A stretch of 64,000 nt of DNA from Ignavibacteriota bacterium (GTDB lineage: Bacteria > Bacteroidota > Ignavibacteria > UBA10030). Position 1 is the stretch's first letter. Each line of letters begins with the position of its first letter. Positions 6,652 through 46,044 of the stretch are shown piece by piece. The notes under the pieces are model-generated. The model was not told the origin of the DNA, made no database searches, and saw only the letters and a list, made by a program, of their open reading frames with translations. The position numbers were made by a program, and so were the translations under genes. The stretch spans positions 19,085 to 83,084 of the forward strand of contig CAWBMS010000013.1 of assembly GCA_963790045.1 (NCBI GenBank), given 5' to 3'.

Positions 6652-8922
6652 TTATAATTGCAGCGCCATACCAATAATGTAATTGCGTTCGGCAGCAGGA
6701 TAGAATTCCTGCCCTTCGCCAGTCATCGTATATAATCGATTTAACAAATTGTGCACTTCACCGCGCACGATAAGATGCACGCCGGCACCAAGCGTGAACC
6801 GATACAATGCAGATGCATTCAGTACCATATACGCATCATTTTTTTCGAGATCATTTTTAGTATTGTCCGTATAAAATGCACCGACATATTTTGCATCGAT
6901 TGAGGCACTCCAAGCATCAACAGTTTGAGTCAACCGAAGGTTCGCCATAAAATCCGGTGAGCCGGCAATCGGATTGCCATCCAAACTATGGCGATACGTG
7001 ATGCCATTCACGATGCTATCAGCAATCGCATAGCTGATGAGGCGATTGTGAGAAATCGTTGCATTGCCGCTCACACTGAATCCGTTATTGAACGATGTTT
7101 GCGCTTCAAGTTCGATGCCAATGTGCCGCGTGCGGTCAGCATTGCCCATCACCGGTTCTCCGAAAATATCAAGCGCGCCACTTTTAATGAGTTCATCTTT
7201 AAATTCCATCCAGAAAATATTTGCCGCCAGCAGCGAATATTCATTACGGTATGCCGCACCAATTTCTAAATCGTACAAATGTTCCGGTTTGGCAATCGGA
7301 TTATTGAAATTGTATTTCACGGCACCGCCTACCGTATCGGCTTCAAACTGCGGCGTGCTGCCCCAGATGGTTTCTTCCGCAGAATATAAATCTATCAATC
7401 GCGGCTCGCGAGACGTGTATGCGAGATTGATGTAAGAATTAAAATGTTCATCCACATTATAATTGACGCCGACACGTGGATTGACAAAGAAATACGGGAC
7501 AGCAAAATCATCATTATAAAATTTTTCATTGCTCAGTGTATAGCGATCATAGACAAATTGAAGATCGGTCATTAATGTCAGATCGTCGTTCAATCTATAT
7601 AATTCATTACCGTAGAACGAAACGATATCTTTTCCGCCGTTGTATTTATAGATATAATAATCAGGATCGTAATTCGACGGAAAGTTTTCTGCATACTGAA
7701 TTTTTCCCCAATGCAGCGAACGATGGAAACGCAATTCCGCACCAAGCGTCAGCACACCGGTGTTGTGATCGATTTCCAACCGCGGCAGCCATCCGAATTG
7801 TTTATCACCGACATACGCGCGCACAAGCGAATTGATCGGATCCGCAGCACCGACATATCCGTTTGCTGAATCCCAATGAATCGCCGATGCCGTCAAACCA
7901 CTTCCATCATAGTCATAATATCCATCGCCTTGAATATAAAAAAATGTATTGGAGAGTGTGATCTTCGGTGTCAATCGCCATTCGTTCAATAATTCAAAAT
8001 GCGGCTGGGAAAATGATTCTGCTTCTTGCGCACGACGATTCGTGGCATAGGTAACAGAATCTTGCGCATCGTTCAATTCAAAATAATTGTAATTCGTACG
8101 ACGAAGATTTAGGTCGTTGTTATAAAATTTCGGGATGCCATTATATACTAATCCATCGGTGAACGGACCGCCGTAAAAATGTATGCGTGTCGTCATGTTC
8201 GCATCCAATCGTTCGACACCGAAAAAATAAGAATCAATTTCGTCCCAGGATTTATCGCGATACCCATCGGTAGAAAGTTTGCCAAGCCGCCCGTAAAACA
8301 TATATTGACTATCGACAAGACCGGAGTTGAATGTTGCGGAATATTTCCGCGTAGAAAGCACAACAGTATTTGTTGAACCGTATTCCTGAAATCCCAAACT
8401 GCTTTCAAGCAAAACACTCGGCTTTGGCTGGAACGGAATTGCAATCAAATTCACAGAGCCGCCGATTGCCGGCGGTCCGTAAAACGCGCTGCCTGCTCCG
8501 CGCTGCACTTGAATGGTGGATGTGCTTCCCAGCAAATCCGGAAAGTCGATCCAGTACACGCTAAAATCTTCCGGATCATTCTGCGGCACGCCATTCACCA
8601 TCACAGAAAGCCGCTGCTGTTCAAAGCCGCGTAAATTAATGTAGCTGTACCCGCCGCTTGCATTTCCATTTTCAGAATAAAATGTGATGGACGGAAGTTC
8701 GGATAACAGTACAGGAACATCCTGCACAGTATATTGCTGCTGGATTTGCGATCTGGATAAATTAGAAAATGTTACGGGCGATAAACGCTCCGTTGCCTGT
8801 GTTGCCGCAACGGTTGTAACAGGTGCTTCGTGATAGACAGTGTCACGATCGATTTTCTCTTGCGCAGTGGCAATTGAAAATCCTATGGTGACGGCTGCAA
8901 GAAGATGTGAATAGTTCAGCAT
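6652..8922 (-). CDS. TonB-dependent outer-membrane receptor (predicted thiamine/precursor receptor)
   Basis: 756 aa with signal peptide, plug domain (INLRGF..VMVNGVPQND) and a beta-barrel ending in a terminal aromatic/L residue. AAGGAG Shine-Dalgarno present. A TPP riboswitch lies immediately upstream. Confidence 0.9.
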   Translation of the reverse strand: MLNYSHLLAAVTIGFSIATAQEKIDRDTVYHEAPVTTVAATQATERLSPVTFSNLSRSQIQQQYTVQDVPVLLSELPSITFYSENGNASGGYSYINLRGFEQQRLSVMVNGVPQNDPEDFSVYWIDFPDLLGSTSTIQVQRGAGSAFYGPPAIGGSVNLIAIPFQPKPSVLLESSLGFQEYGSTNTVVLSTRKYSATFNSGLVDSQYMFYGRLGKLSTDGYRDKSWDEIDSYFFGVERLDANMTTRIHFYGGPFTDGLVYNGIPKFYNNDLNLRRTNYNYFELNDAQDSVTYATNRRAQEAESFSQPHFELLNEWRLTPKITLSNTFFYIQGDGYYDYDGSGLTASAIHWDSANGYVGAADPINSLVRAYVGDKQFGWLPRLEIDHNTGVLTLGAELRFHRSLHWGKIQYAENFPSNYDPDYYIYKYNGGKDIVSFYGNELYRLNDDLTLMTDLQFVYDRYTLSNEKFYNDDFAVPYFFVNPRVGVNYNVDEHFNSYINLAYTSREPRLIDLYSAEETIWGSTPQFEADTVGGAVKYNFNNPIAKPEHLYDLEIGAAYRNEYSLLAANIFWMEFKDELIKSGALDIFGEPVMGNADRTRHIGIELEAQTSFNNGFSVSGNATISHNRLISYAIADSIVNGITYRHSLDGNPIAGSPDFMANLRLTQTVDAWSASIDAKYVGAFYTDNTKNDLEKNDAYMVLNASALYRFTLGAGVHLIVRGEVHNLLNRLYTMTGEGQEFYPAAERNYIIGMALQL

Positions 8923-8980: not shown

Positions 8981-8999
8981 AAGAAAGAAGAGCTGTTCT

Positions 9000-9106
9000 C
9001 CGTTTTCCTACGCCGGTATAACCCGGTTCAGGTTCGCAGGGTTTGATCTCAGTCCCGATCTCATCAAGTTCTTCGTCTGATGAAACCGTCAGGACACCCC
9101 TAACGG
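9000..9106 (-). promoter_or_regulatory. TPP (THI-box) riboswitch aptamer
   Basis: Minus strand reads CCGTTAGGGGTGTCCTGACGG...GGGACTGAGATCAAACCCTGCGAACCTGAACCGGGTTATACCGGCGTAGGAAAACGG. The GGGGUG, CUGAGA, ACCCU, GAACCUGA and CGUAGGAA blocks and a closing P1 (CCGTT/AACGG) are all present. Confidence 0.9.
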
Positions 9107-9140
9107 ATGAATAAATATGTTAATGTAAAAGAACTACTTA

Positions 9141-9225: not shown

Positions 9226-9254
9226 TTGACATTGAAATAATTAAACAGTAGAAT
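9226..9254 (+). promoter_or_regulatory. sigma70-type promoter pointing into repeat array 1 and the kinase gene
   Basis: TTGACA (9226-9231), 17-nt spacer, TAGAAT (9249-9254). Confidence 0.45.
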
Positions 9255-9384: not shown

Positions 9385-9782
9385 TGCTCCGTGGACGAAC
9401 TTTGTCTTTTTCCGGATCGATAAAATGCTCTGCGGAACGAGAGAAATGGTGTCGGCAATGACACAAATGGCGTTAGCAACGAGACAAATGACGCTGGCAA
9501 CGACACAAATGACGTTGAGAATGACAGAAATGGTGTCGGGAATGAGAGAAATGGCGTTGGGAACGACACAAATGACGTTGGGAATGAGGGAAATGGCGTG
9601 GGGAATTGAATAAATGCCCCGGCGAAAGGAATACATGGACTGCTGAAAGGAATAATTGTGCTGCCGGAAGGAATAATTGGCGTTGATTATAGTATTTTTG
9701 ACATACTGAACGGTACTTTGGTGCAGGGAATGGAATAATTGGTGATGGTAATGGTGTTTTGGAGAATGGAAAGGGAAAAAAT
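9385..9782 (+). repeat. array 1: about 19 tandem 21-nt units (degenerate minisatellite, consensus GGCGTTGGGAACGACACAAAT)
   Basis: Units start at 9385, 9406, 9427, ... 9700 in exact 21-nt phase, then 9721, 9741 and 9761. Conserved columns are GGAAYGA-N3-AAAT followed by G. All six reading frames are open because the unit has no stop codon. Confidence 0.85.
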
Positions 9783-9889: not shown

Positions 9890-10720
9890 ATGGTAAAATA
9901 TAGTGTAGTTAAAAAAATAGGACGTGGAGGAAATGGGATAGTTTATCAAGTAACAGATGAGAATGGAAATTTTTTTGCTAAAAAGGTACTTGAAAATATA
10001 AGATCAAAAAAAGCATATCAAAGGTTTAAGGACGAAGTAGAGGTTTTATATGGGCTTAAAGAAAGAAAGGGGGTAATTGAAATTATTGATGCTTATTTAC
10101 CTAATCAGTTTTCTAAACATGATAAACCCTATTATGTTATGCCTCTTGGGATAAGTTTGAAAGATTACATTAAAAACTTACACGATGAACAAATAATAAA
10201 TTTAGTGATCGAACTTTGTGATACTCTAGATTTTTTGCATTCTAAAGATATAACCCATAGAGATATAAAACCTGAAAATATATTGGTTATTGACAACAAA
10301 CCAGTCTTCTCAGATTTTGGTCTAGCTAATTTTCCCAAAAAGGTAAGAGTTTCAAGCCAAAACGAAAACATAGGTCCTAAATGGACAATTGCACCGGAGA
10401 TGAAAAGAATCTCATCAACAGCTGAGTTTAAAAAAGCAGATATATATTCTTTTGGTAAAACATTATGGATGCTAATAACCAAACAATGGTGGGGTTTTGA
10501 AGGTCAGTATATTCCCAATAGTTCAATATCGGTTGACAATTACGTCGAAATGATAATAAATAAACCGCACTTAGCCAGTAAATGGTATTATCATTCAATT
10601 GTGCTGTTAAATCAACTTTTAACTGAATCTACTGACAACGACCCATTAAAAAGACCTGATGCAAAATCATTTACAGATAAACTCAAATATTGGTATACTA
10701 GCCTGCGACGATTATTTTGA
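9890..10720 (+). CDS. Hanks-type serine/threonine protein kinase (stand-alone catalytic domain)
   Basis: GRGGNGIVY Gly-loop, AKK lysine, HRDIKPENIL catalytic loop, DFG, APE, DIYSFG and KRPDA are all present. The gene is visibly AT-rich compared with its flanks. Confidence 0.85.
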   Translation: MVKYSVVKKIGRGGNGIVYQVTDENGNFFAKKVLENIRSKKAYQRFKDEVEVLYGLKERKGVIEIIDAYLPNQFSKHDKPYYVMPLGISLKDYIKNLHDEQIINLVIELCDTLDFLHSKDITHRDIKPENILVIDNKPVFSDFGLANFPKKVRVSSQNENIGPKWTIAPEMKRISSTAEFKKADIYSFGKTLWMLITKQWWGFEGQYIPNSSISVDNYVEMIINKPHLASKWYYHSIVLLNQLLTESTDNDPLKRPDAKSFTDKLKYWYTSLRRLF

Positions 10721-11297
10721 GAGAAACCCTTATGAGTGGATTGACGCATTAAAAAGAATTTTTCCTGTTTCAATTCCAAACAGCTGTTCTTGGCAAAAAT
10801 TTGAGGATATTTATAGAATTCTGAAAATATTATGTGAACGTTACGATAATTTAAATCATTGCTTTTATCCTCGTTCAGGGGGTATGGACTTTGATAAAGT
10901 TGAACTTGATAAAACAAAAGAATTTTTGATTATAAACAACAATGAGATAATTAAACCCAAAATTCTATACTTTGAATTTATGAACGATTTTGATTGGAGT
11001 TATTTTAGACTGGAAGTTGAGGAAATTGAACCAATATTTAAAGAAAACTTGCACGAATTTGAAGAAAGAATATTTATTGACAATGAGGGGAATTATCTAT
11101 CAGAAGAATCTCCCAGGTATAGAGAATGTTCAAGATTTGTAAAGGGAAGTTTTCTGTTAACCAAAAAAACTTCAAAGATAAATCAATTATCTGGAAGACT
11201 TGATGCGTATAATGCATTGCATAACAAAATGAATAATACTAAATATAAAGATTTTCTTTTTGAATTGATTAATAAGTTGAAAAGCAGTTCTTCGTAG
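10659..11297 (+). CDS. hypothetical protein; probably the C-terminal module of the kinase gene, displaced by a +1 frame change
   Basis: 212-aa ORF overlapping the kinase 3' end by 62 nt in the +1 frame, with only one ATG before residue ~75. No motif recognised. Same AT-rich composition as the kinase. Confidence 0.5.
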   Translation: MQNHLQINSNIGILACDDYFERNPYEWIDALKRIFPVSIPNSCSWQKFEDIYRILKILCERYDNLNHCFYPRSGGMDFDKVELDKTKEFLIINNNEIIKPKILYFEFMNDFDWSYFRLEVEEIEPIFKENLHEFEERIFIDNEGNYLSEESPRYRECSRFVKGSFLLTKKTSKINQLSGRLDAYNALHNKMNNTKYKDFLFELINKLKSSSS

Positions 11298-26981: not shown

Positions 26982-27369
26982 ATGATGTATCGACAACTCA
27001 CAATATTTCTTTTCCTTCTTGCTATATCATTTTCATTGTATAGTCAAGAAAAGAATTTATCGACCGACACTGCTGTTACAAATATAAATTTTTTTGTTCC
27101 GCCGTTACCTTTTGAACGGACGGAATCTACCTCTTCCTCCTTCCTTAACACTTATAACAACAAATTATTCTCTGGAATATTTGCGTGCATCTTTAACTGC
27201 ACCGCCTTCGCTCACCGAAAAAACAAATCGTGAACTTCAGGATATCTGGCAACACGAACTTGCCTTACAGAATGAAGGCAAGACATGGAAAACCATTCTC
27301 TCTTCTCTAAAAATGGGGGGAACGGCTTACATGCTTTATGAGCATGTTCGAAAGTATGGGTTGAAATAA
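26982..27369 (+). CDS. small secreted hypothetical protein, possibly split at a T7 run (27089-27095)
   Basis: ORF 26982-27233 carries a signal peptide. ORF 27094-27369 is in the +1 frame and is long and stop-free. Confidence 0.35.
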
Positions 27370-27603
27370 TTATCTGTTCAATTTTATTTTTATCTCTTTG
27401 TTCTTTTGAAATCATTTAGAAAAAAAATTTCGGAACTGAATTAACATATAAATTCTGTGATCTCTTTCTTATTACTTATCTTTTACAATTCTGGAACTAT
27501 CACCTGCACCTTTAATGCCCGGAGGAGTGCCACCATCACGATACGCTGAGCGACATCTCCATGATTGCAGATTTCATGTTAATCCATTTAAGTAATTATG
27601 ATA

Positions 27604-29022
27604 TTATTCTACAGGAAAATATTTTTGAAGAAAACTCATCATTTTATTCCACGAATCAATTTGCGCAGCAGCATTCTCTGAATCCTTACCTCCCACATTT
27701 ATTTGATCATATTTATAATTTACAGTTGGCATTAGATCTGGTCCATAAATAAGATGCCCGGTATTATCATAATTTAAACACACGACTTGATGTTCAAATT
27801 TTAAACTGTCTAATCGATTTTTAATCATTTGGCACATATCATAAGATGGCCATACCTTATCATCTTTCCCTGCAATCAGTAAAACCGGACCGTTAATTTT
27901 TTCAACTTCAATAAGTGCTGGTTCAATTATCGATTTATCCTCAGTGATAATAGGTTCAAAGATTTCACGAAGTACAATCTGTTTAGAATTGGTGATAAAT
28001 TTCCAGAAAAATGAAAAGCCAATATTGCATTTAAGGTAAGGAAGGTCTTTACCATTGAATGTCCATGATGATTTACTGCTAAAACTAGGCCCATTTGGTA
28101 TTCCCTGCCATCGAACATTACTTGGTACGAATGCTATTGCACCTTTAATATCTCTGCGCATCGATGCTACCAATAAAGCAGCTTCTCCACCTTTTGAAAA
28201 TCCTAAAATGACAATCTTATTAGTATCAATGAATTGTTTTTCTTTGGCCCAATTAATTGAATTGAAAAAATATTCAACAGGTATTCTTTCCAGATTCTTG
28301 GGAAGATTATCCATGCCAAAATAACCCAAGGCCAGAACCGCATAACCATGAGAAGAAATTATTTTAGCACGATCGTCCACTTCTTTCATTCCACCACCCG
28401 AACCACCTAACATGATAACAAGCGGCAAGTTATTTTTGTTTTTGGGATAATAGAAGTTTGCAACCATTTCCTTATTTCTTATCACCTCACAATAAATATC
28501 GGGTGTTTCCAACACTAGTTGAAGTTCATTTTTTGAAATGATCTTTCTGTCTACTTCCAATTGAAAATATATCGTATTCAATTTCAGATTCTTTATTTCA
28601 AACGGTAATTCTTCATTTCTATAGGATGGTTTTGTCATTGACCAAAAAATACCCAAAGAATCAGCACCTGAATATGTGGCTGATATCGGTATATCATTAT
28701 TAAGCTGTATTAGTCCTTTGGTGTCGGTCTTAAAGCAGGCAAATGAATAAATAATATCTTCCCATTTTCTACGATAGGCATGTAATGTAATATTTCTATT
28801 TGGCGGTAAATGATCTAGCATGATATGAATGGAAGTGCCCATCATAACTTTATTTGATGGTTCTATTATTATGCAATCGTCACGGTTTGTTGTATCCGCT
28901 TTAATTTTGATAAATTTAGAGAATTCAGAATCTCTTAATTCATCAGACTTTTGCGGGATATTATACGAACAACCTGATACCATCAGGATGGAAGTCAAAA
29001 CAAAATAAATTGTGTTTTTCAT
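27604..29022 (-). CDS. BAAT / acyl-CoA thioester hydrolase family lipoprotein
   Basis: Lipobox LMVSGC; GFSKGGEAALLVAS nucleophile elbow; GKDDKVWPS; TGHLI. AT-rich gene. Confidence 0.7.
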   Translation of the reverse strand: MKNTIYFVLTSILMVSGCSYNIPQKSDELRDSEFSKFIKIKADTTNRDDCIIIEPSNKVMMGTSIHIMLDHLPPNRNITLHAYRRKWEDIIYSFACFKTDTKGLIQLNNDIPISATYSGADSLGIFWSMTKPSYRNEELPFEIKNLKLNTIYFQLEVDRKIISKNELQLVLETPDIYCEVIRNKEMVANFYYPKNKNNLPLVIMLGGSGGGMKEVDDRAKIISSHGYAVLALGYFGMDNLPKNLERIPVEYFFNSINWAKEKQFIDTNKIVILGFSKGGEAALLVASMRRDIKGAIAFVPSNVRWQGIPNGPSFSSKSSWTFNGKDLPYLKCNIGFSFFWKFITNSKQIVLREIFEPIITEDKSIIEPALIEVEKINGPVLLIAGKDDKVWPSYDMCQMIKNRLDSLKFEHQVVCLNYDNTGHLIYGPDLMPTVNYKYDQINVGGKDSENAAAQIDSWNKMMSFLQKYFPVE

Positions 29023-29074
29023 AAATAATCCTATTAAGTAGTTAATAAAATAAACCATAATGACAAAAAAAATA

Positions 29075-29362
29075 CTATTTGGGATTTATATATTTCTTAA
29101 GGTTAATTACATAATTTTCAAATGCTTTTGTTCCTTTGCAGGTAATTGATATGGTAGTATTTGGATAATTATTTTTAAAAGATTTTTTAACTTGAATATA
29201 TCCTGCATCTTGTAATTTCTTTATCTGAATACTAATGTTTCCAGCCGCAGCATTAGTAGATTCTTTTATAAAAGTAAAATTGGCATCGTCCACTGTCATT
29301 AGAATAGAAATTATTGACAAACGAAGCTGCGAATGTAATAAGGGATCTAAATCGTTAAACAT
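29075..29362 (-). CDS. winged-helix transcriptional regulator (HTH_34-like)
   Basis: LDPLLHSQLRLSIISIL...FTFIKE...GNISIQIKKLQDAGYIQVKK matches the HTH_34 pattern. Confidence 0.7.
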   Translation of the reverse strand: MFNDLDPLLHSQLRLSIISILMTVDDANFTFIKESTNAAAGNISIQIKKLQDAGYIQVKKSFKNNYPNTTISITCKGTKAFENYVINLKKYINPK

Positions 29363-29948
29363 GTTCCTTCCTATCTGCCCTATTGAGTAAAATCCCAGGA
29401 ATTATCAATCCTACTAACGCTCCTAACATCATGCTAAACCCATGATAATCCCTGCTAACTAAGAAAGTACCGAATCCAATTAAATTCATTAAGATACCTC
29501 CAATAAATAGCGGTTTGAATTTAATGGATGATCCCGTAACAATCATAGATAAAGCAAACAAAATTAAAAATATTGGTGCAAGGGCATCACCAAGTTGCCG
29601 ACTAAAAAGAAAACCTAAAACCATAAGGTTTACACCCATCGCCCACCCCAACGTTCCTACTATCCTGCCGATTATAGTATTGGGCAGATTATTCTTTTTT
29701 ACTTTTCTCCTATCATATATAAATGTATAGATCGCCCCAAGCGGAAATAAAATAACAGTCCATATTATGTCAAATTTCTTGTATAATCCCGTTAATGAAA
29801 AAACATACTGACTAAAAAATACCGTAAACATCAAACAACCCCACAAAACAATTATGTGGCCGTTTTCTTCAAATCTTTTTTTAGTTTCTTCTATTGTCTT
29901 TGTAATTAACAAGAGACTTCCTTCGGGTGTTAAAGTTGTTTTGTCCAT
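29355..29948 (-). CDS. membrane protein (hypothetical), overlapping the regulator start by 8 nt
   Basis: 197 aa, about 5 TM segments. Confidence 0.55.
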   Translation of the reverse strand: MDKTTLTPEGSLLLITKTIEETKKRFEENGHIIVLWGCLMFTVFFSQYVFSLTGLYKKFDIIWTVILFPLGAIYTFIYDRRKVKKNNLPNTIIGRIVGTLGWAMGVNLMVLGFLFSRQLGDALAPIFLILFALSMIVTGSSIKFKPLFIGGILMNLIGFGTFLVSRDYHGFSMMLGALVGLIIPGILLNRADRKEHV

Positions 29949-30402
29949 TTGTATCCTTTAAATTTAATGAGATATCTATAACAATAAACTAATTAATACT
30001 ATTAACCATAATATAAAAAAGCTCGTTCAATGTCAAGAGTTGTGTAAAAATAATTATGCAGCCAGCAATAATATGGGCTTCTCCTTTTCAGATATTCACA
30101 TCTAGATAAAATACCAGAGCTCCTATATCCAGTTCCTCATCCTTTTTTCTTCATGATGTTTCATCAGGATTCCTGTAGGAAGTCACCGAAAATTTTTCTA
30201 TCTTATTCATAGTCGCAAGTTGCGACAGCCGCATCCGTGCCTTTGGGCATCGGGAGCGGGCATTTGAGACTCGCTCTCCGATGATAAAAAGTAAAGTAGT
30301 GCACGGGAACCTCCAGGACCTTTCTGCAGTTTTTCCCCAGTGTTTCATTTTGCGCCTTCTATCTTTTGCAGCGCGTTTCGTATTTATTTCATAAGGATAT
30401 TT

Positions 30403-42741: not shown

Positions 42742-43686
42742 ATGAAAGCACAATCACTCACAATAACAACACCGCACGATTTTCACTTCTGGCGCACCGT
42801 GTACAGTCACGGCTGGAGTTCGCTACCGCCATTTCAGATCGATAAAGAGAACGAGGCGCTCATCAGAATTCTGGAATTATCCGATGGATCGCTCGTTCAC
42901 TGCTCCATCTCTTCTTCTGCGCCAACAAAACTCCGGCTTTCACTTCAAACAAAAAAACAATTGCACACGGATCAACAACAGGAAGTGAAGCAGCAGCTTC
43001 GTTCTTGCTTTCGGTTGGATGAAGATTACACGGAATTCTTTCGCTATGTCAAACGCTTCCCGCAATACCGCTGGATCGCCAAGTTGCACACGGGCAGATT
43101 GCTCTGCTCGCCGTTCGTGTTCGAAGATATTGTGAAGATGATCTGCACCACCAATTGCAGTTGGGCACTGACGGAAGTGATGGTGAATAATTTTACTCAA
43201 TCGCTCGGCAAAAAGTTCGATGGCGATCTCTACAGCTTCCCTTCGCCCGAAGCAATTGCCGGTACAACCGAAACATTCTTGCGCAAGAACATTCACGCCG
43301 GCTACCGCGCGCCCTTTCTGCTGGAATTTTCCGAAAAGGTTGCTTCGCATAAACTCGATGTCGAATCGTGGCGCACAGCAGATTTATCAACGGAAGAAAT
43401 GTACAAACAACTTCGTTCCATTAAAGGCGTAGGAGAATATGCCGCAAGCAACTTGCTGCGATTGCTCGGACACTACGACCGATTGGGATTGGATTCGTGG
43501 ACACGCGGGAAGTTTTATGAACTGCATCACAACGGCAGGAAGGTAAGCGACAAGACCATCGAAAAATATTATGCGACGTACAGGCAAGTGGCGCGGACTC
43601 ATCTTCTGGTTAGAGATGACGAAGCACTGGCTGAACCAGAAGTTTCCGTTTTAAATGATTTCGATATTCCATTACTCTCGTTTTAA
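42742..43686 (+). CDS. DNA-3-methyladenine glycosylase II (AlkA-like, HhH-GPD) family protein; C-terminus probably frame-shifted near 43588
   Basis: HhH motif LRSIKGVGEYAASNLL. Skipping g43588 gives QWRGLIFWLEMTKHW...*, with stop at 43652-43654. This resembles the AlkA C-terminal PWRSYALLHIW. Confidence 0.7.
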   Translation: MKAQSLTITTPHDFHFWRTVYSHGWSSLPPFQIDKENEALIRILELSDGSLVHCSISSSAPTKLRLSLQTKKQLHTDQQQEVKQQLRSCFRLDEDYTEFFRYVKRFPQYRWIAKLHTGRLLCSPFVFEDIVKMICTTNCSWALTEVMVNNFTQSLGKKFDGDLYSFPSPEAIAGTTETFLRKNIHAGYRAPFLLEFSEKVASHKLDVESWRTADLSTEEMYKQLRSIKGVGEYAASNLLRLLGHYDRLGLDSWTRGKFYELHHNGRKVSDKTIEKYYATYRQVARTHLLVRDDEALAEPEVSVLNDFDIPLLSF

Positions 43687-43726: not shown

Positions 43727-43749
43727 CGAGGACTTTAGTCCTCGTTTTT
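43727..43749 (+). terminator. rho-independent terminator
   Basis: cgaggac-ttta-gtcctcg followed by TTTTT. Confidence 0.65.
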
Positions 43750-43803: not shown

Positions 43804-44076
43804 CTATTTTTTGTCAATTTTTAAATAAGCGCCAAACAATTTATTGGATACTTCGGATTGTGCACCAAACCATTCTGTAAGGATTTTAATATGATCCAAG
43901 GTTTCGTTTCGTTGTTTCTCGTCAACGGTTTTTTCAAAACGACGCGCATATATTTGTAAAGAACTTCCTTTTGAATATAATTCTCCCAAATAATCTTTTA
44001 TTTCGTCGCCAAACAAGAACTCATAATCTTTTGAGTTGTGTAGAAATTTTGTCAATATTTCATCAGAGAGATTCAT
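43804..44076 (-). CDS. hypothetical protein (AT-rich orphan, 90 aa)
   Basis: ORF only; no motif recognised. Lies about 195 nt downstream of array 2 on the same strand. Confidence 0.4.
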   Translation of the reverse strand: MNLSDEILTKFLHNSKDYEFLFGDEIKDYLGELYSKGSSLQIYARRFEKTVDEKQRNETLDHIKILTEWFGAQSEVSNKLFGAYLKIDKK

Positions 44077-44271
44077 AAAACCTGCGACTCTAATTGAAGA
44101 GATATAATCTTTTACTGAGAGAAAGACAGAATAACGTTTTTCATATAAATCGAGTCACCAGCGTAACTTCCATTTCGCCATTTCCCATATACATTTCCCC
44201 AAAAAGCGGCGGATACGGCATTTATGCACCATTTTGGCATTCTCCGTTAAATATATTGGTTTTTTCTGGGT

Positions 44272-44628
44272 ATTTATTCAGTCCGGCGGTCTATTTATGT
44301 CGTCCGTTGATATATAAATACCATCCGGCAGTGTTTAAATACGCTTCAAAAGCGCATTTATTCCTTTCGGATGAATAAAAATACCTTTCGGGAGAGTAAA
44401 AATACGTTTCGTTAGAGCATTTATTCCATTCGGCAGGGTATTTCTGTCGTCCGGCGTGGCATTTCACTCGTTCGGAAGAGCATTCCACTCGTCCGTTAGT
44501 CGATTTCAGTCATCCGGCGAAGCATTTCTCTCGTCCGTTAGTCCATTTCAATCGTCCGGCGGAGCATTCCACTCGTTCGCAAGAGCATTTGAATCGTCCG
44601 TAGGGACATTTTAACTGTCTCGTCCTGA
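44272..44628 (-). repeat. array 2: 17 tandem 21-nt units, same family as array 1 but on the opposite strand
   Basis: Plus-strand units run atttattcagtccggcggtct ... atttcactcgttcggaagagc / attccactcgtccgttagtcg / atttcagtcatccggcgaagc ... in exact 21-nt phase (17 x 21 = 357 nt). Their reverse complement reads NNNNNNCCGGACGANNGAAAT. Confidence 0.85.
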
Positions 44629-44690
44629 AAAAAGTTGACAGGTAAAATAGTGATTTATAAGTATTGGTTCATTATGATTGTTTCGTAATT

Positions 44691-45542
44691 TCATGCAGCG
44701 TATTTCATTTCAGGCGTCAGGAAGTTTAAACTCAGATGTGGCCGTTGGGTGTTATAGGTCTCTATGGCTTCCTTCACGGCTTGCTGGACAAAAGGCATAT
44801 CTGTAAATATTCCATCCAACAAAAACTCTGTCTTCAAAATTCCGTTCACACGTTCGGCAATGGCATTCTCATACGGATTGCCACACTCACCCATACTGAT
44901 TTGTATCTGATGCTTCTGTAACAACGAGATATAGGCATCACTGCAATATTGAATGCCGCGATCCGAATGATGAATCAATCCTGCCGAAGCAGGAACACCG
45001 GATAATGCCATCTTCATCGCGCGTAACGCACCTTCTAACGATAAACTCCGGCTCACATCATAGCCAACGATCTTGCGAGAATACACATCGGTGACCAAGG
45101 CAAGATAACAGAACCCTTCTCGCAACCGCAGATAGGTGATATTCGAGACAAAGACTTGATTGGGCCGGTCAATATCCAGTTCCCGTATTAAATTCTTATA
45201 CACACGAAAACGATGATGAGCGTTGGTGGTGAGAGCATACTTTTTCTTCCGTCTCACCAATAAGCCCTCGTTGCGCAGGATGTCAAAGAATTTATCCCGT
45301 CCGATGGACATTCCTTCAAGTGCGTGGATGCGTTCAGCTAACTTCCAATACAGCTTCTTCCCGCCAAGCTTCGGCATCCAGCGGCGTTGCTCTTGAACCA
45401 TCTGCACAATGCAATGGGTCGAGACCTCTTGCCGGATCTTCACGGCACGCTGCTGATACACCGCCTGACGGCTGATCCCAAACAATGCACACACCTGACT
45501 CATCCTATAATCTCCTTCGTGATACGCTCGTCGCTGGAACAT
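44691..45542 (-). CDS. IS3 transposase OrfB (DDE/rve integrase core)
   Basis: 283 aa; HSDRGIQY...ENAIAERVNGILKTE. The -1 frame is open back to the slippery site. Confidence 0.9.
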   Translation of the reverse strand: MFQRRAYHEGDYRMSQVCALFGISRQAVYQQRAVKIRQEVSTHCIVQMVQEQRRWMPKLGGKKLYWKLAERIHALEGMSIGRDKFFDILRNEGLLVRRKKKYALTTNAHHRFRVYKNLIRELDIDRPNQVFVSNITYLRLREGFCYLALVTDVYSRKIVGYDVSRSLSLEGALRAMKMALSGVPASAGLIHHSDRGIQYCSDAYISLLQKHQIQISMGECGNPYENAIAERVNGILKTEFLLDGIFTDMPFVQQAVKEAIETYNTQRPHLSLNFLTPEMKYAA

Positions 45543-45907
45543 ACGTTCGATGATCCGGTATCGGTCTTTTTTTTATCGCCGCTTCCGTATTTTTCTTCCA
45601 GCACCTCCACGGTTGTTTCCAACGCGATGATCTTGAGATGGGCTTGGGCTAAGGCCGATTCTAATGCTTTCTTTTCCTTCTCTAACGCTTTCAGTCTATC
45701 TTGTTCGTCTTTCATTTCTATCCGCACAACGCGGTTTAACAGGTGGTGCTTGCCAAGCTCTTCGATCCATCGTCGGATCGTCATTGTTCCATGAATATCG
45801 TAAAGCTTTCGTGCTCCTTCAATGCCTATCTGACCACTTTCTATTTCCTCCACTACTTTCCGCTTAAAAGCAGTGCTATAGCGATAGCACATCCGTTTCT
45901 GTTCCAT
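45500..45907 (-). CDS. IS3 transposase OrfA (HTH plus leucine zipper)
   Basis: 135 aa; YSTAFKRKVVEEIESG...; coiled-coil LKALEKEKKALE. The A AAA AAA G frameshift motif is at 45567-45574 (T8 on the plus strand). Confidence 0.85.
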   Translation of the reverse strand: MEQKRMCYRYSTAFKRKVVEEIESGQIGIEGARKLYDIHGTMTIRRWIEELGKHHLLNRVVRIEMKDEQDRLKALEKEKKALESALAQAHLKIIALETTVEVLEEKYGSGDKKKTDTGSSNVCSSDERITKEIIG

Positions 45908-46044
45908 TGGTTGACTCCGTTCTTGTCAACCTATAGCAGGACAAGACAAACTGCTTTGATCCTCGCTCCCCGTGTCCTTTTACTCGACTTTTTCGTAGCG
46001 AGCAAGCTCAGGACAAGCATCGGATTGGAATGACGAATTCCTTT

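Follow-up and report, generated by a model that had tools for sequence, protein, structure and literature searches.

Two arrays of tandem 21-bp direct repeats, 35 kb apart, lie in a 64,000-nt stretch of DNA from an Ignavibacteriota bacterium (contig CAWBMS010000013.1, positions 19,085 to 83,084 of the forward strand; hereafter, the window). The array with which we are mainly concerned, array 2, is read on the minus strand. Upstream of it are the rsmI gene and an insertion sequence (IS) of the IS3 family, and downstream are a pseudogene and a convergent HhH-GPD glycosylase gene. Its sister, array 1, is on the plus strand ahead of a frameshifted kinase gene. Both arrays represent a single family of non-coding 21-bp direct repeats that is dispersed and specific to this lineage, and each lies 5′ of an AT-rich gene that was acquired horizontally and has since been broken. 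In many phyla 21-nt arrays with other sequences are common, so that the kind of feature is not new; this family of units and its pairing with acquired genes are.

Array 2 is a genuine, non-coding array of 21-nt direct repeats. Cutting the minus strand at 21-nt steps from 44628 to 44272 recovers the unit list of the initial annotation with zero phase slips, and Tandem Repeats Finder reports periods of 21, 42, and 63 nt over 44312-44600, as it does over 9434-9680 in array 1. The pattern GANNNRAAT, taken three times at 21-nt spacing, has 13 matches in the window, all 13 of them inside the two arrays, and none in 100 shuffles. The initial annotation counted 17 units between 44272 and 44628. The register stands, but not the seventeenth unit (44628-44608): because the IS3 element starts at 44616, that unit joins the IS end CAGGACGAGACA to native GTTAAAAT, and the GGACGA contributed by the IS misses the register set by the conserved core by about 6 nt. 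We use a register common to both arrays, in which unit position 1 is three bases before A[CT]GA. The native array 2 then consists of a 15-nt lead (44615-44601) and 16 units (44600-44265) in a single register, with no indel.

The lead segment, GTTAAAATGTCCCTA (44601-44615), contains one copy of the AAC target duplication of the IS (44613-44615) and resembles the lead unit of array 1 (..TAAAATGCTCTGC). It is followed by a block of eight type-A units (44433-44600) with the consensus CGGACGAGTGAAATGCTCTGC, and then by a transition unit (CGAATGGAATAAATG..) and seven AT-richer units of types B and B′ (44265-44432), in which the 21-nt register is kept and unit positions 11-14 are A/T. The register is lost at about 44264. 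The degenerate copies that had been said to continue toward 44170 are present as a decayed stretch (44264-44170) directly adjoining the pseudogene, but without register, and the last part overlaps pseudogene coding sequence.

Array 1 (9413-9727) is built in the same way. It has a lead unit (9413-9433), eight type-A units (9434-9601; consensus GGAACGAGAGAAATGGCGTTG), and a transition unit with type-B units (9602-9685), and its register can be followed to about 9727. The block order, from a lead unit ending in ..TAAAATG through eight type-A units and a transition to AT-richer type-B units, is thus the same in both arrays (permutation p = 0.00075). The transition unit of the two arrays contains GGAATAAATG / TGAATAAATG, and the units after it are of type B (CGAAAGGAATAAATG) or B′ (..GTATTTTT..). 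Common to both arrays is the bipartite core A.GA....AAT. Unit-by-unit orthology between the type-A blocks is absent, with 11.1 matches on the diagonal versus 11.4 off it, and the flanks of the two arrays have no homology outside the repeats. As the initial annotation had it, what the arrays have in common is a nucleotide core and not a reading frame; the ATG-containing frame is indeed closed in array 2, and so are the remaining two sense frames.

The distribution of differences among the units is uneven. Among the 16 type-A units of both arrays together, positions 4, 6, 7, 12, 13, and 14 never vary, and most of the differences fall at positions 8-10 and 16-21 (chi-square p = 0.0013, a value inflated because the units are related through 42- and 63-nt higher-order repeats). 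In the core, 11 of 12 positions are the same in the two array consensuses; in the linker, 3 of 9 are (p about 0.002 with a fixed block of positions and about 0.05 when any block is allowed). Positions 11-14 are A/T in 29 of the 31 units of both arrays, including those in which AAAT became TTTTT. No dyad symmetry is present in the unit. Mean pairwise identity within the type-A blocks is 0.77 in array 1 and 0.69 in array 2, and about 0.5 for type-B units. The GC content of the type-A blocks (0.49 in array 1 and 0.53 in array 2) is higher than that of the window (0.44) and of the adjacent genes (0.30-0.32); in the type-B blocks it is 0.42 and 0.375, respectively.

Minimum spanning trees give lower bounds of at least 65 substitutions among the units of array 1 and at least 75 among those of array 2, with no indel in 14 and 16 units. 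Bacterial non-coding DNA usually accumulates about one indel per 10-20 substitutions, so several would be expected here. The register is kept beyond the neutral expectation.

The gene downstream of array 2 had been described as a 90-aa orphan (43804-44076) lying some 195 nt from the array. A word-index search finds no relatives of this open reading frame (ORF); an exhaustive HMMER search finds 115, mostly of about 150 aa. With tblastn of the family against the locus (E 1e-23 to 1e-31), homology does not begin at the ATG but extends in the same frame as far upstream as 44169; on the way it passes a TGA at 44155-44157, where the family has the conserved R/K of an RW[RK]L motif. What had been taken for an orphan is thus the last part of a 5′-truncated pseudogene (43804-44169, minus strand) that lacks the family's N-terminal hydrophobic helix, and there is no gap between this gene remnant and the array, whose tail adjoins it. 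A hairpin terminator (43727-43744) separates the pseudogene from the glycosylase gene.

The family of about 150 aa to which the pseudogene belongs (P0124-P0237) is uncharacterized. Its proteins have a hydrophobic helix at the N terminus, a helical bundle, and, as a conserved motif, WRLDLYDKRYPV. The AlphaFold model of the family is confidently all-helical (mean predicted local distance difference test score 92). The family has no Pfam, PADLOC, or PHROG match, its model has no structural neighbor in the PDB with E < 0.27, and its profile reaches a best E of 0.32 against PDB sequences. It has no tblastn match in plasmids or phages, and a scan of viral contigs was also empty. One member is fused to a PIN_8 domain.

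The cargo of array 1 is a single PD-T4-6-like Ser/Thr kinase gene (9890-11297, plus strand), frameshifted at about 10701-10703. A 276-aa "kinase" ORF (9890-10720) and a 212-aa C-terminal ORF (10659-11297) are the two parts of this one gene, and the only two homologues found align to both parts. One (L305) is fused and intact, while the other (L304, Neptunitalea chrysea) is disrupted too. The kinase matches the PD-T4-6 and mad6 defense-kinase models, and its C-terminal domain is novel. Look-ups with the 276-aa and the 212-aa ORFs gave no independent record of either half, so that the frameshift rests on one assembly. A faint LHN.K.Y..FLF likeness that had been pointed out between the 90-aa protein and ORF 10659-11297 is not significant (BLASTP E = 0.92). 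Both cargo genes, then, are AT-rich, acquired, and broken, and they are possibly both of a defense or toxic kind.

The IS3-family element (44616-45948, minus strand) is 1333 bp long and has terminal repeats TGTCTCGTCCTG / TGTCTTGTCCTG, orfA (45500-45907), and orfB (44691-45542), the latter with rve domains. Its 3-bp target duplication, AAC, is present at 44613-44615 and again at 45949-45951. The end of the element at 44616 had been placed correctly. The array, however, has not been clipped by it, as had been thought: since the flanking duplication is intact and excision in silico restores a continuous sequence, the insertion removed nothing. Nor was a native promoter displaced, since the array is only 96 nt from the rsmI stop codon (46045) and there is no distant promoter to displace. 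No terminator is predicted in the native spacer (45952-46044, minus strand). Because the IS-excised upstream region has no predicted terminator and, inspected by eye on the reconstructed sequence, only a weak promoter-like sequence, read-through from rsmI is the likeliest native source of sense transcription of array 2. A second, identical 1333-bp copy of the element occurs in the same assembly (L306, 2959-4292), in ordinary intergenic DNA between a DPBB_1-domain gene and a PF1765-like gene, with the duplication ACG and no array alongside; the element is therefore probably active. The bare 1333-bp element is also found on a short-read contig (L308).

Array 1 is probably transcribed from a promoter of its own, since a near-consensus sigma-70-type sequence, TTGACA-17-TAGAAT (9226-9254, plus strand), reads into it. 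A back-to-back partner promoter (9169-9141, minus strand) is correctly placed upstream of a thiamine pyrophosphate riboswitch (8988-9111, minus strand), ahead of a TonB-dependent receptor gene (6652-8922), which lends credit to both promoters. On the sense strand, no terminator lies between either array and its cargo. Both arrays are thus probably transcribed as well, which we regard as secondary.

Comparison with relatives shows that the array and the pseudogene are an accessory insertion at a variable spot and not a conserved feature. In the closest relative found (L124, with a glycosylase 79% identical and flanking DNA 79-85% identical), rsmI and the glycosylase gene abut, with neither array nor gene between them, so that the uninterrupted locus that had been hoped for in relatives is an empty junction. 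In three further relatives (L125-L127, 75% identical), the same junction holds an unrelated 309-aa gene, and in the window it holds array, pseudogene, and IS. Relative L125 also has a hicA-type toxin gene nearby. An IS-free sister strain was not found, and all same-strain contigs carry the IS. The 16 units recur in four assemblies (L001, L002, L003, and L307) whose identity to the window is 99.8-100%, with one single-nucleotide polymorphism between them; this change, GGACGA to GGACAA in L003 and L307, falls on an "invariant" core position.

The arrays do not travel with their cargo. Among the kinase homologues, neither L304, which has no tandem repeat upstream, nor L305 has such an array, and members of the family of about 150 aa, which follow either recR directly (L309) or a DUF8370/DUF8371 gene (L310-L313), have none either. 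The only repeat near any cargo homologue is a 22-nt array of 3.5 copies in L305 (1532-1609; CCGAAAAGATAAAGTAG), with type-B-like units, downstream of the kinase and beside a 90-aa ORF on the opposite strand.

Searches farther afield returned arrays of other kinds. BLAST of both arrays against plasmid and phage collections gave no match, and we found nothing relevant in the literature on 21-nt or 21-bp bacterial repeat arrays and on new type III families. In pattern scans of genomes and metagenomes, the matches listed (at least 120 per scan) were heterogeneous and included coding heptad repeats and giant-virus genes; being unrelated to our unit, they say only that 21-nt arrays are common. The best score of these foreign arrays against a position weight matrix of the unit was 14, versus 18-27 for true units. 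Among the same matches, intergenic 21-nt arrays of unrelated sequence (L004-L123, L128-L303) are common in Bacteroidota, Cyanobacteria, Acidobacteriota, Planctomycetota, and Bacillota. Most of them are young, with units more than 90% identical, and examples such as L007, L015, L027, L053, L056, L081, and L120 often show two unit subtypes or a 42-nt super-period. The flanking genes of ten well-formed foreign arrays, by inspection, include no recurrent family.

Some other features of the window deserve mention. The glycosylase gene (42742-43686, plus strand) has an end that is out of frame with respect to its relatives (314 versus 303 aa; ancestral stop at 43654), which reflects either a real indel or an assembly error. 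The borders of the AT-rich island around array 2 (island 2), at 43655-43670 and 46027-46042, form an imperfect inverted repeat, ATGATTTCGATATTCC / AGGAATTCGTCATTCC, that matches at 12 of 16 positions; 9.5% of shuffles reach as much, so that as a best-of-all match it is not significant. In L125, a similar sequence, TTCGATATTGCC, comes just after the glycosylase stop, and no such motif flanks island 1. A third AT-rich island (27000-30000, GC 0.30-0.34), on the minus strand, encodes a 484-aa esterase-like protein, a 95-aa protein, and a 197-aa membrane protein and has no repeat array.

What needs explanation is the combination of a strict 21-bp register, an asymmetric core, and an in-phase A/T tract in two old, unlinked arrays whose flanks and cargo are unrelated. 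We tentatively favor the proposal that this dispersed, lineage-specific repeat works at the DNA level through its helical phasing, either as a platform for protein binding in the manner of iterons or as a platform of curved DNA. A unit of 21 bp corresponds to two turns of the helix. Each unit has an asymmetric bipartite core, with A-GA at positions 4-7 and AAT at positions 12-14, and an A/T tract at a constant place, and because every two-turn unit has these at the same place, all cores and tracts would lie on one face of the duplex. Such phasing would give intrinsically bent DNA, and it would allow many copies of one sequence-specific protein, encoded elsewhere in the genome, to load side by side as on iterons. 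A likely consequence would be a nucleoprotein block upstream of the acquired genes, silencing or insulating them. Alternatively, the arrays may be the left-over iteron block of the vehicle that delivered these genes. That the arrays do not travel with the cargo fits a DNA element supplied by the host or by the vehicle rather than an RNA partner specific to a gene.

Several observations weigh against this proposal. No binding protein has been identified for either array, and neither has a rep gene or a DnaA box nearby. The position statistics are, as said above, inflated by the shared ancestry of the units. Since 21 is also a multiple of 3, a former reading frame would keep the register just as helical phasing would, and the register alone does not tell the two apart. 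Beyond the arrays, the 64-kb window has no excess of single core copies, with about 7 versus 10.5 expected for the window as a whole. Only two loci are known, and no further member of the unit family is among the matches listed in the scans. Moreover, because the nearest relative lacks the array and both neighboring genes are pseudogenes, selection on the locus may be weak or past.

It is tempting to go further and to suppose that a host protein polymerizes on the arrays, which would mark the upstream side of newly acquired defense or toxin genes as a device for their sequence-specific silencing or insulation, or as a landing pad for the capture of foreign cassettes. We consider this improbable as a specific claim, but if true it would amount to repeat-based domestication of foreign genes in the Ignavibacteria/Bacteroidota group, for which we know of no H-NS-type silencer. 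More generally, if the phasing reflects protein binding, it would offer a handle on how an Ignavibacteria-type genome treats acquired, potentially toxic genes, and the role of intergenic 21-bp arrays in Bacteroidota, Cyanobacteria, and other phyla would become testable.

Foremost among the competing explanations is a neutral or selfish minisatellite: in accessory DNA that was dispensable and decaying, slipped-strand mispairing and unequal recombination would have enlarged a 21-bp seed into one ancestral array without function, from which both arrays descend. The 42- and 63-nt higher-order periods are typical of unequal exchange, the edges of the arrays are degenerate, pseudogenes lie beside both, the nearest relative has no array, unrelated 21-nt arrays are common in many phyla, and a polymorphism segregates at an "invariant" core position. 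Yet the units are old, pairwise identity being 69-77% and the substitutions amounting to at least 140, and show zero small indels, while most arrays elsewhere, among the matches listed, are young and have near-identical units. Core and A/T tract are kept between two unlinked arrays when the linkers are not, the GC content of the type-A blocks (0.49-0.53) is held above the 0.44 of the window despite neighbors at 0.30-0.32, and the four assemblies, near-identical as they are, do not differ in copy number. We therefore regard a neutral origin as possible but rather unlikely. Should it be correct, the locus would still serve as a warning, since little was left of the picture of an array with its orphan gene when the orphan turned out to be the end of a pseudogene and the IS an intact, independent insertion.

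Another explanation places the function in RNA. The array would be a long leader, co-transcribed with the downstream gene and containing 16-20 mimics of a start site, each a purine tract followed by AAAUG, that serves as a decoy or sponge for ribosomes or for a repressor that binds start sites, in the manner of CsrB, or that is cut into 21-nt toxin-neutralizing units in the manner of ToxI. On the sense strand, the unit is indeed similar to the regions where translation begins in this organism, an example being GAAAGGAGAAATACG-ATG in the gene for the TonB-dependent receptor. Of the window ORFs of at least 150 codons, 28% have a Shine-Dalgarno-like motif upstream, versus a background of 7.6%. 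GGA and ATG are about threefold over-represented, with 17 and 19-20 copies per array, respectively, versus 6-7 expected. The arrays are 5′ of their cargo and on the same strand at both loci, a near-consensus promoter reads into array 1, no terminator intervenes between rsmI and array 2 or between array and cargo, and both cargo genes are of a defense or possibly toxic kind.

However, the two cargo proteins are unrelated, so that one RNA cannot be a specific antitoxin for both, and homologues of the cargo occur elsewhere without arrays; the repeats are not co-inherited with either gene family. The arrays appear, from predicted folds, to lack a consistent RNA structure: compared with shuffles, array 1 gives z = -0.07 and array 2 gives z = -2.5, the latter apparently from one hairpin of a type-B unit, and there are no hairpins that present GGA. 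Rfam, at gathering and at permissive thresholds, has no family on either array. Sponge RNAs need no exact spacing, and the AUG is lost in several units of array 2, which have AUC, AUA, or UUA. The window has no CsrA or Hfq gene, which is weak evidence given its 64 kb. An RNA-level role, then, seems unlikely to us.

Since 21 nt equal seven codons, the arrays might instead be the relic of a protein-coding heptad repeat, read as N-E-R-N-G-V-G / D-E-W-N-A-L-P on the sense strand or as T-P-F-L-S-F-P on the antisense strand. A reading frame would explain the conservation of the register. In array 2, the sense frame is in frame with the downstream pseudogene, and its stops are TGA where sister units have TGG; in array 1, the ratio of non-synonymous to synonymous polymorphism (pN/pS) is 0.38 and 0.46 in the sense and antisense candidate frames, versus 0.94-3.07 in the other four. 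The candidate frames nonetheless reach 0.64-0.74 within array 2 and 0.8-1.0 between the arrays, so that in six-frame tests the coding signal is weak and is not reproduced from one array to the other. The period-3 signal is gone when variable positions are counted once (5:2:4, by hand tally), neither frame has a start codon or a ribosome-binding site, the translated repeats have no Pfam match, and the frame stands in a different relation to the cargo in each array. In both arrays the antisense frame stays open throughout, as a pyrimidine-rich strand with its few stops would lead one to expect, and this frame matches no family. We judge a coding relic very unlikely.

The weakest proposal, that the array is part of the end of a mobile element, be it the IS3 element or a larger transposon, and supplies transposase-binding sites, draws on a likeness between the IS end CAGGACGAGACA and the unit core CGGACGAGAGA and on the inverted repeat exactly at both borders of island 2, but is hardly credible: that likeness is out of register and unsurprising (roughly estimated at 0.15 over all possible alignments), the border repeat is matched by shuffles and has no counterpart around island 1, there is no transposase except that of the IS, and the IS is a complete element with inverted repeats and a duplication of its own, whose other copies (L306, L308) come without the array.

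How, then, do the arrays compare with known systems? With sponge RNAs such as CsrB and RsmZ they share many GGA or Shine-Dalgarno-like motifs in one transcript. Unlike in those RNAs, the spacing here is exact, the motifs are not presented in hairpin loops, and there is no free-standing small RNA gene with a terminator of its own. Neither is there a CsrA gene in the 64-kb window, and we know of no CsrA for this organism.

The repeats of type III toxin-antitoxin systems (ToxI, CptI, TenpI), with units of about 34-45 nt in 2-5.5 copies, are likewise tandem, direct, 5′ of a defense or toxic gene on the same strand, and probably co-transcribed with it. Here, in contrast, the unit is 21 nt, in 16 copies in array 2 and about 14 in array 1, and no intrinsic terminator lies between repeats and gene. 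The cargo is a kinase in one case and a small helical membrane protein in the other, rather than an endoribonuclease of the ToxN, AbiQ, CptN, or TenpN kind, and the repeats do not co-occur with the gene families (L304, L309-L313). Four of the five defining features of type III systems being absent, we do not assign the arrays to them.

Dispersed minisatellites, such as the MIRU-VNTR loci of Mycobacterium tuberculosis and boxB of the pneumococcal BOX elements, have units of 45-100 bp. Like our arrays, they belong to one family that forms tandem arrays at several intergenic loci, oriented as the neighboring genes, and they are lineage-specific and of mostly obscure function. The arrays described here differ in their 21-bp unit, in units that are old and diverged yet free of indels, in having no small ORFs that bridge the flanking genes, and in showing no copy-number polymorphism among four near-identical assemblies.

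Iterons, for example the 22-bp repeats of the R6K gamma origin and the 19-bp repeats of P1 incC and incA, come closest in architecture. They too are direct, asymmetric repeats of about 20 bp (range 17-22 bp), spaced at two helical turns, with a conserved core and a variable linker, and they have a block of good copies beside an AT-richer stretch, as the type-A blocks (GC 0.53 and 0.49) have beside them the type-B blocks (0.375 and 0.42) in arrays 2 and 1, respectively. In the reading that we prefer, the arrays would also resemble iterons in being recognized by a protein rather than folded as RNA. They differ from them in being chromosomal, at two loci, beside unrelated cargo genes, and with sixteen units, more than is usual. 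With no rep gene and no DnaA box nearby, they are not members of the iteron class. Thus, the array is distributed like the MIRU-type minisatellites, whereas, on the analogy that we have drawn, it would work most like a block of iterons.

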